IMG/VR virus record: IMGVR_UViG_2681813321_000031
DNA from: a virus
Taxonomy: Duplodnaviria > Heunggongvirae > Uroviricota > Caudoviricetes
DNA length: 27,060 bases
Direction: 5' to 3' (one strand)
Of this stretch, positions 20,941 through 27,060 are shown one piece after another (the first letter of the stretch is position 1; each line of letters begins with the position of its first letter). The position numbers and the translations under genes were made by a program. The notes under the pieces are model-generated. The model did no database searches. It had not been told where the DNA came from and was given only the letters and a program-made list of their open reading frames with translations.

Positions 20941-21456
20941 ATGGCGTTAACACACCACGAACTCTGTCAGATTGCGTACAAGTTCCTTAAGCGCAACGGG
21001 TTCAAGGTTTGCTTTCATGACCGCTTTGTTGCTGTAACCAGTACCGGAGAACAGCCAGATGCTATGGGATTCAGAAATTCAGCATCATGCCTGATAGAGG
21101 CGAAGTGTTCTCGTGCTGACTTGTTGGCAGATAGAAAAAAGCGTTTCCGTAAAAATCCCTCACTTGGCATGGGCGACTGGCGATTCTTTATTAGTGAGCC
21201 GGAAATTATTTCAGTTGAGGATTTACCTCCCGGCTGGGGATTACTTCACGTTGTTAACGGAAGAGTACGGAAAGTACATGGATGGCCCAGGGGTAATTGC
21301 TGTTGGGGTAATCCTGACGATAAGCCATTTACTGGGAATAAGCAGGTTGAATGCGATTACATGTTATCTGCATTAAGGCGCATGGAGTTGAGAGGGCACC
21401 TTAATGAAATATATGACGGTGTGATTGTTAATAAGAAAGAAGGAAACGCGGCATGA
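20941..21456 (+). CDS. hypothetical protein with PD-(D/E)xK-like nuclease motif (171 aa)
   Basis: ATG at 20941 preceded by AAAGGAGAG; ...DAMGF...CLIEAKCS... fits the D...(D/E)xK signature. The 3' end of this gene is where the 2.87-kb repeat begins. Confidence 0.5.
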   Translation: MALTHHELCQIAYKFLKRNGFKVCFHDRFVAVTSTGEQPDAMGFRNSASCLIEAKCSRADLLADRKKRFRKNPSLGMGDWRFFISEPEIISVEDLPPGWGLLHVVNGRVRKVHGWPRGNCCWGNPDDKPFTGNKQVECDYMLSALRRMELRGHLNEIYDGVIVNKKEGNAA

Positions 21457-22211
21457 TCACTATTACCAAAGGGCGACTGCTGACAATCAAGCAGTGGCGC
21501 GAAACATACGGACCGGGTAGCAACGTTGTACTGCCAGCAGAAGAAGCGGAAGAACTGGCACGAATTGCACTGGTATCGCTGGAAGCAGAGCCGGTGGCAA
21601 AGATTATAGCTCATTACCCATTAGGAGTTGACGTAGGCAAACAAAAGTTCGTACAGGCCATTGGAGAGCTTCCTGACTTTGGCGGATATCTATTTGCCGC
21701 CCCGCCAGCGCCGGTAGTGCCGGAAGAAGCAACTCCGGAAAACGTAGAAATGCTCTCTGGCTATGTTTCCACGTACAAATTAACCGATAGCGAGCGCGAT
21801 ATTGCTGCCGAAATATGGAACGCCTGCCGCACCGCCATGCTTCAGTCCGGAAACTTTCGGGAAAGCAAGAATTCGTCAACCAATAATTTTCGGGAAATCC
21901 CGGAAGCGTCAACCAGCTCTCCGGTAACTCCGGCTCTTCTGCCTGGTGGTTTCACCATTGAGGAGGCGAAGGAATTACATGAAGACCTGGTACGCAGCCA
22001 CATAAGCAAGGCCTTAAGTGGCGAAAAGATGAAAAAGAAAGATCGCGATGCTGATTTGCGCTGGATTCATGGCGTTATAGTTCAGGCAGCGTGGTTTGTA
22101 AAAGCATCACTGGAGCAGAATGCACTATCGGGCAACTCTCCGGTAACTCCGGATGGTTGGATAAGCTGTAGTGAGCGAATGCCGGACGACAGGCAGGAGG
22201 TGAATCAATGA
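21453..22211 (+). CDS. DUF551-like prophage protein (252 aa)
   Basis: C-terminal PDGWISCSERMPD resembles the DUF551 signature; ATGA coupling with the upstream gene. Confidence 0.6.
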   Translation: MITITKGRLLTIKQWRETYGPGSNVVLPAEEAEELARIALVSLEAEPVAKIIAHYPLGVDVGKQKFVQAIGELPDFGGYLFAAPPAPVVPEEATPENVEMLSGYVSTYKLTDSERDIAAEIWNACRTAMLQSGNFRESKNSSTNNFREIPEASTSSPVTPALLPGGFTIEEAKELHEDLVRSHISKALSGEKMKKKDRDADLRWIHGVIVQAAWFVKASLEQNALSGNSPVTPDGWISCSERMPDDRQEVNQ

Positions 22212-22291
22212 GCTGGCCTGATGCAATCGTAACTCTGGGGGTGGTATTCGCAGCAGCGTTTGTTGTGTTCTCGATTTGTCGATGGGGATAA
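22208..22291 (+). CDS. candidate 27-aa hydrophobic micropeptide
   Basis: MSWPDAIVTLGVVFAAAFVVFSICRWG; ATG overlaps the DUF551 stop (ATGA). Too short for the ORF track. Confidence 0.3.
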   Translation: MSWPDAIVTLGVVFAAAFVVFSICRWG

Positions 22292-22295
22292 CCAC

Positions 22296-22538
22296 ATGTT
22301 CGCTTTGATTCAACGCGGTCAGATATACACGGACAGAGCTGGATACCCCGTGGTGATTACTCGCATCACTGAGCACTCAGTGTTCTTTCGACGGATGGAC
22401 GGACGATCCGGGCGGGTACGCATTGGTGAGTTAAACTGCCTGTTCGAACATATTGACCACCAGGAGTACCGCAAAATTCTCGCGGACACTGAGCAGGAAA
22501 AGCACCTGAAAAAATTACGAGCCATAAAAAGGAAGTAA
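22296..22538 (+). CDS. hypothetical protein (80 aa from ATG 22296)
   Basis: Track ORF 22260..22538 starts at TTG; ATG at 22296. Confidence 0.45.
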   Translation: MFALIQRGQIYTDRAGYPVVITRITEHSVFFRRMDGRSGRVRIGELNCLFEHIDHQEYRKILADTEQEKHLKKLRAIKRK

Positions 22539-22550
22539 AGAATGAATAAA

Positions 22551-22571
22551 NNNNNNNNNNNNNNNNNNNNN
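22551..22571. other. assembly gap (21 N)
   Basis: Run of n; an ATG (22542) with AAGGAAG Shine-Dalgarno opens an ORF that runs straight into the gap. Confidence 1.
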
Positions 22572-23623
22572 GGGGACGCTGGGTGATTGAAGGCGACCTG
22601 TCCAGTTACTTCGACACCGTACATCATCGACTGCTGATGAAGGCTGTACGCCGCAGGATCAGTGACGCACGTTTCATGACTCTGCTGTGGAAAACCATCA
22701 AGGCGGGACATATCGATGTCGGTCTCTTTCGGGCGGCCAGTGAAGGTGTGCCACAGGGCGGTGTTATATCGCCGCTATTATCGAACATCATGCTGAATGA
22801 GTTCGATCAATACCTGCATGAGCGCTACCTGAGCGGGAAAGCCAGAAAAGATCGGTGGTACTGGAATAACAGTATCCAACGGGGCCGAAGTACGGCGGTC
22901 AGAGAAAACTGGCAGTGGAAACCCGCGGTGGCGTACTGCCGCTATGCCGATGATTTTGTCCTCATCGTCAAAGGCACCAAAGCACAGGCGGAAGCCATCA
23001 GGGAGGAGTGTCGGGGTGTGCTCGAAGGCAGTCTGAAACTCAGGCTGAACATGGATAAGACTAAAATCACCCATGTTAATGACGGCTTTATCTTTCTGGG
23101 GCACAGGATCATTCGCAAACGCAGTCGTTATGGCGAGATGCGAGTGGTCTCAACGATCCCGCAGGAGAAAGCCAGAAACTTCGCCGCATCGCTGACAGCA
23201 CTGTTATCAGGCAACTACAGTGAAAGCAAAGTCGATATGGCTGAACAACTCAACCGAAAACTGAAAGGCTGGGCCATGTTCTATCAGTTCGTTGATTTTA
23301 AGGCCAAAGTCTTCAGTTATATCGACCGTGTCGTGTTCTGGAAGCTGGCTCACTGGCTGGCCCGCAAATACCGTACAGGTATCGCTTCCCTGATGAGGTG
23401 GTGGTGTAAATCACCGAAACCGGGTCAGAGCAAAACGTGGGTTTTATTTGGTAAAACCAATCACGGCAAGCTCAGCGGCGAAATACTGTACCGGTTGGTG
23501 GGGCAAGGCAAGAAGCTGTTCCGCTGGCGGCTACCCGAAGGTAATCCCTATCTGAGGACGGAGACCAGAAACACGTATACATCGCGCTTTACAGAAGTGG
23601 CAATGGCGTTCGCCAGCATTTAA
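22572..23623 (+). CDS. group II intron-encoded reverse transcriptase/maturase, 5'-truncated by the gap, no endonuclease domain
   Basis: GRWVIEGDLSSYFDTVHH, VPQGGVISPLLSNIMLNEFD and YCRYADDFVLIV parallel the RT motifs of Ll.LtrB LtrA; LKGWAMFYQF is maturase-domain-X-like. Frame is open upstream into the N-run. Confidence 0.85.
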
Positions 23624-25406: not shown

Positions 25407-25418
25407 AGAATGAATAAA

Positions 25419-25439
25419 NNNNNNNNNNNNNNNNNNNNN
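25419..25439. other. assembly gap (21 N), copy B
   Basis: Run of n identical in length and position to 22551..22571. Confidence 1.
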
Positions 25440-26491
25440 GGGGACGCTGGGTGATTGAAGGCGACCTGTCCAGTTACTTCGACACCGTACATCATCGACT
25501 GCTGATGAAGGCTGTACGCCGCAGGATCAGTGACGCACGTTTCATGACTCTGCTGTGGAAAACCATCAAGGCGGGACATATCGATGTCGGTCTCTTTCGG
25601 GCGGCCAGTGAAGGTGTGCCACAGGGCGGTGTTATATCGCCGCTATTATCGAACATCATGCTGAATGAGTTCGATCAATACCTGCATGAGCGCTACCTGA
25701 GCGGGAAAGCCAGAAAAGATCGGTGGTACTGGAATAACAGTATCCAACGGGGCCGAAGTACGGCGGTCAGAGAAAACTGGCAGTGGAAACCCGCGGTGGC
25801 GTACTGCCGCTATGCCGATGATTTTGTCCTCATCGTCAAAGGCACCAAAGCACAGGCGGAAGCCATCAGGGAGGAGTGTCGGGGTGTGCTCGAAGGCAGT
25901 CTGAAACTCAGGCTGAACATGGATAAGACTAAAATCACCCATGTTAATGACGGCTTTATCTTTCTGGGGCACAGGATCATTCGCAAACGCAGTCGTTATG
26001 GCGAGATGCGAGTGGTCTCAACGATCCCGCAGGAGAAAGCCAGAAACTTCGCCGCATCGCTGACAGCACTGTTATCAGGCAACTACAGTGAAAGCAAAGT
26101 CGATATGGCTGAACAACTCAACCGAAAACTGAAAGGCTGGGCCATGTTCTATCAGTTCGTTGATTTTAAGGCCAAAGTCTTCAGTTATATCGACCGTGTC
26201 GTGTTCTGGAAGCTGGCTCACTGGCTGGCCCGCAAATACCGTACAGGTATCGCTTCCCTGATGAGGTGGTGGTGTAAATCACCGAAACCGGGTCAGAGCA
26301 AAACGTGGGTTTTATTTGGTAAAACCAATCACGGCAAGCTCAGCGGCGAAATACTGTACCGGTTGGTGGGGCAAGGCAAGAAGCTGTTCCGCTGGCGGCT
26401 ACCCGAAGGTAATCCCTATCTGAGGACGGAGACCAGAAACACGTATACATCGCGCTTTACAGAAGTGGCAATGGCGTTCGCCAGCATTTAA
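25440..26491 (+). CDS. group II intron RT/maturase (5'-truncated), copy B
   Basis: Identical to 22572..23623. Confidence 0.85.
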
Positions 26492-26496
26492 ATGGA

Positions 26497-26530
26497 GAGC
26501 CGGATGCGCTGAAAGGTGCACGTCCGGTTC
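26497..26530 (+). ncRNA. group II intron domain V, copy B
   Basis: Identical to 23629..23662. Confidence 0.85.
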
Positions 26531-26583
26531 GGGGAGGAGAGGCAGGGAAATAGTCCGACTACGCCCTGCCTCTTACTCTACTC

Positions 26584-27060
26584 TGGACGGGTAAGCGCTG
26601 GGCGTACCTCGCCGTTGTTCTCGACCTGTTCGCAAGAAAACCAGTGGGCTGGGCCATGTCGTTCTCGCCGGACAGCAGGCTCACCATGAAAGCGCTGGAA
26701 ATGGCATGGGAAACCCGTGGTAAACCCGGCGGGGTGATGTTCCACAGCGATCAGGGTAGTCATTATACGAGCAGGCAGTTCCGGCAGTTATTGTGGCGAT
26801 ACCAGATCACGCAGAGTATGAGCCGGCGCGGAAACTGCTGGGATAACAGCCCAATGGAACGCTTCTTCAGGAGTCTGAAGAACGAATGGATGCCGGTGGT
26901 GGGTTACGTAAGCTTCAGCGAGGCAGCTCACGCCATAACGGACTATATCGTTGGATATTACAGCGCACTAAGACCGCACGAATATAATGGTGGGTTACCC
27001 CCAAACGAATCGGAAAATCGATACTGGAAAAACTCTAACGCGGTGGCCAGTTTTTGTTGA
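26584..27060 (+). pseudogene. IS3-family transposase OrfB C-terminal fragment, copy B
   Basis: Identical to 23716..24192; the window ends at its stop codon. Confidence 0.8.

Follow-up and report, generated by a model that had tools for sequence, protein, structure and literature searches.

A 2.87-kb tandem repeat in an Escherichia coli prophage contig as a probable loop of short-read assembly

Composition of the repeated unit

The window analysed here, a stretch of 27,060 nucleotides, corresponds to positions 154-27213 of the draft contig CYBF01000044.1 (GCA_001285025.1, 45,267 bp) and carries at its right-hand end two head-to-tail units in which prophage DNA is followed by parts of a group II intron and of an IS911-family element. 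Its features are listed below, where L059 denotes a locus in GCA_900450055.1.

20941..21456, + strand: phage ORF across position 21333, intact in unit A, 171/182 aa (from the ORF list)
21333..22550, + strand: segment b, copy 1, prophage early-left DNA, 100% identical to the E. coli RM12579 and 12A prophages at mlrA
22551..22571, no strand: assembly gap of 21 N, copy 1, an N run whose flanks are nowhere adjacent in the other genomes examined
22572..23713, + strand: group II intron 3' part, copy 1 (Pfam, Rfam, identity to ltrA-containing loci)
23714..24200, + strand: IS911-family (IS3 family) tail, copy 1, last 487 bp (identity to L059 and 12A; Pfam)
24193..24210, + strand: repeat junction, IS right end to phage 21333, CCACTTCA joined to TGGGAATAAG
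24201..25418, + strand: segment b, copy 2, identical to 21333-22550
25419..25439, no strand: assembly gap of 21 N, copy 2, an N run
25440..26581, + strand: group II intron 3' part, copy 2, identical to copy 1 (Rfam RF00029 at 26495-26581)
26582..27060, + strand: IS911-family 3' part, copy 2, ended 8 nt early by the window boundary
2200..17318, no strand: second pseudo-tandem, 7.55 kb, copies 2200-9761 and 9751-17318

Direct comparison of 21333-24192 with 24201-27060 gives a match at 2860 of 2860 positions with a period of 2868, and BLAST of the window against itself returns the same 21333/24201 pair, 100% identical and gapless; an exact repeat of 2.86 kb cannot arise by chance. The only N runs in the whole window are the two listed, 21 N each and both at an offset of 1218 from the start of their own unit, as the initial annotation had described in calling the units identical down to the place and length of the gap. 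Each unit thus has three parts: segment b (1218 bp), the 21-N gap, and a segment Z (1629 bp) in which the 3' portion of a group II intron precedes the final 487 bp of the IS911-family element. The last letters of the window, at 27060, are ...TTTTTGTTGA and the IS end lies 8 nt further on; that the window stops 8 bp before this end in unit B had been read correctly, and since the window was clipped from a longer record at a gene end, the shortfall reflects the cutting point only.

Segment b belongs to the early-left region of a lambdoid prophage. It codes for a 252-aa phage protein (21453-22211; a weak Pfam match to DUF551) and a DUF4222 protein (22296-22538; Pfam), and it ends 9 nt into a 44-aa ORF that begins at 22542. 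From 22551 onward, the mlrA prophages that are 100% identical to b run on through the 44-aa ORF, xis, int and mlrA. The gene across its left edge, at 20941..21456, is called as a protein of 171 aa in the relatives L054, L060-62 and L066; its 182-aa form (20908..21456) has no match in Pfam. The phage sequence is unbroken at 21332/21333 in unit A, as had been noted from the letters, and is colinear there with three other genomes (RM12579, 12A and L066). The prophage is present in single copy in the sister assembly L066, at 99.89% identity over 12.8 kb, and many records have several places that match it.

The intron part (22572..23713) is 100% identical to ltrA-containing loci of 12A and others. 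It holds the C-terminal 346 aa of a reverse transcriptase/maturase (22583-23623), with both the reverse transcriptase and the maturase domain recognized by Pfam (RVT_1, 6.5e-20; GIIM, 4.6e-11), followed by RNA domains V-VI at 23627-23713 and 26495-26581 (Rfam RF00029, 64.9 bits against a gathering score of 40). A complete intron with the 5' domains I-IV is absent from the window: the sequence opens in the middle of the reverse transcriptase at 22572, directly after the Ns, and the N-terminal third of that protein is missing at the gap. The IS tail comprises element positions 763-1249, with a C-terminal transposase fragment at 23818-24192 and DDE-type integrase signatures at 23776-24192 (Pfam rve, 2.2e-16, also rve_3 and rve_2). 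It terminates at 24200 with the right inverted repeat, ...GGCCAGTTTTTGTTGACCACTTCA, which has the TG/CA terminal form. In L059 the full-length relative is bounded on both sides by imperfect inverted repeats (TGAAGTGG...GGCCACC), and its positions 1-762 are 91-93% identical to the K-12 segments annotated as IS911A. The left end of IS911 reads TGAAGTGGCACAC...; the window holds no left end and no complete element with orfA, orfB and both termini.

The tail at 23714-24200 matches the uninterrupted element of L059 (1249 bp; positions 763-1249) at 100% identity, and equally the intron-bearing copy in 12A. Intron-bearing and intron-less copies therefore share an exact repeat of 487 bp, which short reads would probably fail to thread. 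Copies of the intron within IS911 lie in several genomic contexts.

The two joins that make the repeat

The repeat depends on two adjacencies, one between the IS end and phage position 21333 and the other between b and Z. The first reads ...GTTTTTGTTGACCACTTCA followed by TGGGAATAAGCAGG at 24200/24201 and falls exactly at the terminal CA of the IS, without microhomology, so that the right inverted repeat, ending ...CCACTTCA, stands directly against TGGGAAT in agreement with the initial annotation. Across 24193-24210 this junction occurs in 0 of 5426 complete E. coli genomes, and searches of viral contigs, of GTDB representatives and of metagenome contigs likewise gave nothing. It is present once in L059, at 12696-12713 of the locus, where on a 5.03-Mb contig an intron-less IS911 is inserted exactly at phage 21333 of an mlrA prophage. 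The left flank of that element is phage position 19141, 2.19 kb of phage DNA having been deleted, and no target-site duplication was found around this single copy, whose flanks read ...GCCGTTT and TGGGAAT...; within the window, a 3-4 bp target-site duplication has no left junction to flank the element. The right junction is identical in the two records (99.94% over 1705 bp of IS tail, junction and b), but L059 has a full IS of 1249 bp with no intron, the 2.19 kb are deleted there and b occurs once. The join of IS end and phage 21333 is genuine biology in a different setting, and in this respect the earlier suggestion that the repeat is an artefact can be refined: the join itself is not one. 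An origin of the 24200 junction in an overlap merge was considered and set aside, there being no common 10-mer in the IS and phage contexts (CCATTTAC versus CCACTTCA), and an insertion shared with Shigella was likewise discarded: the IS911-like element there sits at 21238-21241, 95 bp off. That separate insertion in the Shigella-like relatives, with its 4-bp overlap at 21238-21241, does indicate that IS911-family elements insert in the prophage region around 21333.

The second adjacency, between b and Z, is written only as Ns in both units. The site at 22550 is present in 44 loci, of which 40 go on with GCATTTGAACGATGGG... (equally GCATTTGAACG...) and the remaining 4 have an IS1 7 nt further on; b runs into the intron in none of the 44. 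From the other side, Z follows the 5' half of the intron in the other genomes examined: each of the 27 intron copies compared has intron sequence ahead of 22572, which reads ...GGTGAAACCC with a single exception, and in strain 12A the locus 100% identical to Z, an intron within IS911, lies 2.76 Mb from the prophage. As continuous DNA, the adjacency of b and Z was seen in none of the loci examined. A comparison of the native sequence 3' of 22550 with that 5' of 22572 gave no obvious common stretch.

The edges of the gap are informative. In genomes with two intron copies, a C/T SNP separates the copies at the position exactly 11 nt before 22572; in two of these genomes the copies then agree for 472 nt or more downstream. 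The sister assembly CYAG01000001.1 has an A instead of the G of the others exactly 11 nt after 22550. Each edge, 22550 and 22572, therefore lies 10 nt from a site that varies between repeat copies or close relatives. Assemblers that pop bubbles mostly merge single SNPs, so breaks at such positions require that both copies were handled as a repeat. SSPACE marks an unclosed join with a single N. By default, GapFiller trims 10 nt from each gap edge (PMC3446322), and a length of 21 N fits a 1-N placeholder plus two such trims (1+10+10). The best explanation is that the Ns stand for an unclosed join and not for 21 undetermined bases. The identical gaps had been taken as a pointer to scaffolding of the same pieces twice; that reading is supported, but with a single N and default trims any unclosed join would come to 21 N, and the equal length is weaker evidence than was assumed.

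An assembly loop and its alternatives

The 2.87-kb repeat is almost certainly, as judged from sequence comparison, an ordinary assembly artefact of an Illumina draft E. coli genome, and we assign a probability of about 0.85 to its having arisen as a loop during short-read assembly and scaffolding, and not from duplicated DNA. In this reading two near-identical lambdoid prophage variants were most likely sequenced together, one intact and 12A/L066-like and the other L059-like with an IS911-family element abutting phage 21333, along with two or more copies each of the IS911 tail and of the group II intron that IS911 harbors. Segment b (21333-22560) would then form a common node of the graph with two entries, from phage DNA ending at 21332 (segment a) and from the IS right end, and Z would likewise be a common node with branch points at its bounds. 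A greedy scaffolder could have chained a to b, b across a gap to Z, Z to b, and b across a gap to Z again, so that a cycle was output as a tandem array. The piece boundaries do fall on branch points, 21333 being the IS insertion point of L059 and 24200 the IS end, and the arrangement is not found in finished genomes (0 of 5426 for either junction, the second being that of the 7.55-kb pseudo-tandem). We infer a Velvet/SSPACE/GapFiller-type pipeline from the ENA-style accession series and the numerical fit; the presence of two prophages in one genome, and the reason for which the scaffolder linked b to Z, are presumed. The earlier proposal, an IS/intron repeat that the assembly failed to resolve and around which one set of pieces was scaffolded twice, is supported by the non-native join of b and Z, the branch-point edges, the 487-bp repeat, a second false-looking tandem in the contig and the single copy in L066.

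That second tandem has copies of 7.55 kb joined through an 11-nt overlap, CCACTGGCAAA, at 9751-9761, where the sequence over the join is TTATCCCACTGGCAAAAGATGAATAACG. Its copies have 149 differences, all inside 6863-7464, copy 1 being RM12579-like and copy 2 12A/L066-like, and the 9751-9761 junction is present in 0 of 5426 complete E. coli genomes. GapFiller closes a gap once its extensions share an overlap of 10 nt or more (PMC3446322). The chimeric protein of 119 aa encoded across this join (9412-9771) is known from contig CYBF01000044.1 only, and it and other chimeric ORFs of the contig are spurious database entries.

The differing lineages of the two 7.55-kb copies bear on the source of the alleles. 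Within an artefact, these could also derive from a mixed culture or a contaminating second strain (L059-like plus L066-like) and not from two prophages, an origin with which the single b-type prophage of the sister isolate would agree. We nevertheless consider it unlikely: E. coli of these pathotypes often carry several near-identical lambdoid prophages, with many records having several matching places, and a mixture would be expected to give bubbles across the whole genome.

Less probable again is a partly real arrangement in which one extra b stands beside an IS911 with its intron (a-b-X-Z-b-c, or b between two IS911) and the cycle was traversed too often. The contiguity of Z with b, without Ns, is in keeping with such a structure, as is the location of the homing site of the intron in IS911, by which a phage-borne IS911 could have gained the intron, and the occurrence of the intron-bearing IS911 in several contexts, some genomes having two copies within 10 kb of each other. 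However, the right edge of b is phage DNA all the way to the gap, with no sequence from an IS left end, and the intron-less IS911 of L059 together with the identical 487-bp tail accounts for the join of Z to b without new structure. An IS left end hidden just to the right of b is accordingly unsupported, b being phage DNA until the Ns, and the IS1 7 nt past b in the Shigella-like genomes is a separate event.

Still more doubtful is a genuine tandem duplication or amplification mediated by IS911, in which the IS right end would have attacked 21333 on a sister chromosome to give two successive units, each running from b to the IS, with the Ns masking the true sequence between b and the intron. 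The junction exactly at the terminal CA without microhomology is what a transposase would make, IS911-family insertions are known in the prophage region around 21333, and real copies that were collapsed and then written out by reuse of one contig would also give identical gaps. Against this, the duplication requires the middle of an intron shortly after phage 22550, an adjacency in no other genome examined; the gap edges resemble graph branch points and not a rearrangement breakpoint; the same junction in L059 reflects a single copy with a deletion; a gap that was really short should presumably be closable from reads; and CYBF01000044.1 has another dubious tandem. Least of all do we favor the full array as real, with an IS911-family end driving head-to-tail amplification, inside the prophage, of a 2.87-kb unit in which phage DNA would have been joined to a group II intron lacking its 5' part and to the tail of an IS.

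Implications and comparison with known systems

The result is mainly a flag of quality: CYBF01000044.1 is unfit as evidence for duplication of prophage genes, for IS-driven amplification or for fusion of an intron to phage DNA. Beneath it lies an ordinary real item, an IS911-family element at phage 21333 with an adjacent deletion in at least one other strain. A genuine array would amount to a modest case of amplification by an IS, without being a new kind of system. On paper the repeat resembles an IS-mediated tandem duplication in having a head-to-tail unit and a novel junction at an IS terminus, but the unit here is not continuous and contains a join that is unsupported by any genome.

The individual components have close counterparts. 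As in the IS911A/eyeA/ykfC remnant of K-12 CP4-6 and the intact ltrA of 12A, a group II intron lies inside IS911, here between IS positions 762 and 763 and with the reverse transcriptase/maturase and domains V-VI of the known elements, and the matching copy of 12A is 100% identical. The window differs from complete introns in having the 3' 1142 nt only, the 5' part being replaced by the gap. The arrangement as a whole is closest to repeat-induced mis-scaffolding and false gap closure (PMC5320598, PMC3446322), in which Ns lie inside repeats and joins fall at repeat or branch boundaries. A paper on the Sanger pipeline describes SSPACE and GapFiller as greedy, with false joins possible and thresholds down to 5 read pairs (PMC5320598). 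Unlike the norm for tools of this type, one contig is placed twice here; like their errors, the repeat combines gaps of 21 N (1 + 2x10), an 11-nt overlap join that exceeds the 10-nt default merge threshold, and junctions foreign to finished genomes.

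The repeat and its components

The 2.87-kb tandem is best regarded as an assembly or scaffolding loop and not as a real feature (probability about 0.85). The two units match at 2860 of 2860 positions (21333-24192 against 24201-27060), self-comparison gives a period of 2868, and the window has just two N runs (22551-22571 and 25419-25439, 21 N apiece), each at an offset of 1218 nt from its own unit start, bearing out the initial annotation of units identical down to the place and length of the gap. The copies abut between 24200 and 24201, where ...GTTGACCACTTCA runs directly into TGGGAATAAGC, so that the IS right end sits on phage position 21333 as had been described. 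The window corresponds to positions 154-27213 of CYBF01000044.1 (GCA_001285025.1, 45,267 bp) and is therefore of draft-assembly origin; it does stop 8 nt before the IS end in unit B, as previously noted, at a gene boundary and not a contig end, with about 18 kb of contig lying beyond.

Parts of the repeat, in coordinates of unit A
21333-22550: segment b, lambdoid prophage early-left DNA coding for a phage protein of 252 aa and a DUF4222 protein
22551-22571: assembly gap, 21 Ns between b and Z
22572-23713: Z, group II intron 3′ part with RVT_1 and GIIM domains
23714-24200: Z, terminal 487 bp (right end) of an IS3-family element

Segment b matches the mlrA-integrated prophages of E. coli O55:H7 RM12579 and O111:H2 12A at 100% identity. 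Within Z, Rfam Intron_gpII matches 23627-23713 with 64.9 bits, and the intron lies between IS element positions 762 and 763. The uninterrupted 1249-bp form of this element, with inverted repeats TGAAGTGG..., is held by L059 (GCA_900450055.1) and shows 91-93% identity to K-12 segments annotated IS911A and 100%, 99.8%, and 100% identity to the three IS fragments that strain 12A carries. The IS911::intron composite is also found in plasmid-like and ICE-like contexts, and so still seems mobile. Several E. coli genomes (L042, L045, L047, and L048) carry two IS911-borne group II intron copies within 10 kb, one inside an IS911 that IS30 also disrupts, the other inside an IS911 whose orfA is intact.

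Two probable prophage variants in one contig

A second pseudo-tandem is present in the same contig, in which 7.55-kb copies of the phage replication and immunity region (2200-9761 and 9751-17318) meet head to tail through an 11-nt overlap, CCACTGGCAAA, at 9751-9761. Their 149 differences all fall inside 6863-7464 and the rest is identical; copy 1 matches RM12579 at 99.83%, the sequence from copy 2 onward matches 12A at 99.88% and L066 (CYAG01000001.1, a contig of sister assembly GCA_001277575.1) at 99.89%, and the copies fit two different prophage lineages. The junction occurs in 0 of 5426 complete E. coli genomes, and the chimeric 119-aa ORF across it (9412-9771) is on public record only in CYBF01000044.1. 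GapFiller closes a gap once its extensions share an overlap of 10 nt or more (PMC3446322); two alleles in series via an overlap just above such a threshold are what false closure looks like, and the join is probably one.

Minus-strand Rfam hits to C4 antisense RNA and isrK lie at 7258-7345 and 7367-7443, and again at 14812-14899 and 14924-15000, inside the 5′ part of a Rha/ASH-domain gene in both copies. This is the exact patch of copy divergence, where the C4 regions share about 75% identity, as though each prophage variant had its own antisense-module specificity. Tandem 21-bp repeats (ATCTCTGCCCGTAACTCATCC-like) at the replication-gene boundary of both copies (4853-4907 and 12404-12458) are probably origin iterons. 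A 12-bp insertion relative to RM12579, 12A, and L066 (AGATGAAGATGA, 18325-18336) extends the acidic (Asp/Glu) tail of a phage protein of 66 aa, versions of which in relatives span 60-78 aa.

In the proposed model the sample would contain two near-identical prophage variants, one intact and the other with IS911 at 21333, in one genome or (less likely) two strains, together with the IS911 tail and the intron in two or more copies each. Segments in common would collapse into nodes limited by branch points, and a scaffolder would walk the cycle from b to Z to b and write it out as a tandem; the model does not extend to the read pairs by which b's right edge would have been tied to the start of Z. 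Intron-bearing and intron-less copies share an identical 487-bp IS tail, and short reads would therefore be unlikely to assign the sequence upstream of it. That the same artefact arose from a mixed culture is unlikely. The Sanger pipeline paper describes SSPACE/GapFiller-type tools as greedy, with false joins possible, the thresholds having been reduced to five read pairs (PMC5320598). The reading originally preferred, of pieces scaffolded twice around an unresolved IS/intron repeat, gains support from the non-adjacency of b and Z, the gap edges, the shared IS tail, and the second pseudo-tandem.

Joins and gap edges

The phage 21332-21333 join in unit A is native, unbroken in RM12579, 12A, and L066, in agreement with its initial description as uninterrupted. 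Neither the 5426 complete E. coli genomes nor the viral, GTDB-representative, and metagenome collections contain the Z-to-b junction; it is present in the 5.03-Mb contig of L059, where 12217-13921 matches window 23714-25418 at 99.94%. Given its occurrence there, the IS-end/21333 junction is real biology, but of a prophage variant. The L059 element (UGEV01000002.1, 11455-12703) is complete, 1249 bp, and intron-less. Its flanks are the equivalents of window 19141 (left) and 21333 (right), so about 2.19 kb of phage DNA with Ead/Ea22-like genes is deleted beside it; no target-site duplication was found at these flanks, and the arrangement looks like an IS-mediated adjacent deletion. Segment b has a copy number of 1 in L059. 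A partly real b-IS-b structure in the window is quite improbable. Four Shigella-like genomes (L017, L018, L026, and L027) carry an independent IS911-like insertion at window-equivalent 21238-21241, which places it 95 bp upstream of the repeat junction, with flanks overlapping by 4 bp, as well as IS1 at window-equivalent 22557, 7 nt after 22550. This prophage stretch appears to collect IS elements.

The b-to-Z join is represented by Ns alone, and 2.76 Mb separate b from Z in strain 12A. Of the 44 fetched loci containing the end of b, 40 read on as GCATTTGAACGATGGG... in the direction of xis, int, and the attachment site and the remaining 4 have IS1 after 7 nt, while an intron follows in none; in each of the 27 intron copies inspected, the stretch upstream of 22572 is intron. 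For IS911 to have produced a true tandem duplication would take a phage-to-mid-intron fusion; this explanation needs an adjacency seen in no other genome examined and has only a very slight chance of being correct.

Genomes with two intron copies show a C/T SNP between the copies exactly 11 nt upstream of 22572, and in two of them the copies are otherwise the same for at least 472 nt downstream of it. At the other edge L066, from the same accession series, has a single G to A difference exactly 11 nt after 22550 relative to other mlrA-type prophage loci; this change (window-equivalent 22561) could be a real second-prophage allele or an edge error of the same pipeline. With variant sites 11 nt beyond each edge, both gap edges lie 10 nt inside what are plausibly graph branch points. 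SSPACE typically writes a 1-N placeholder for non-positive gap estimates. By default, GapFiller trims 10 nt per gap edge (PMC3446322). On this reading the 21 N would be the placeholder plus 10 and 10 trimmed nt, and we infer from the accession style and these numbers that an SSPACE/GapFiller-type pipeline made the record. The gaps are thus identical, as initially reported, but their length, perhaps a pipeline constant, is by itself no proof of a copied scaffold.

Each component is of an ordinary kind: the IS belongs to the IS911 family, the group II intron has its homing site in it, and the lambdoid prophage sits at mlrA. Their arrangement in the window resembles IS-mediated amplification on paper only, and differs from it in units that do not form the continuous, supported sequence such amplification requires.
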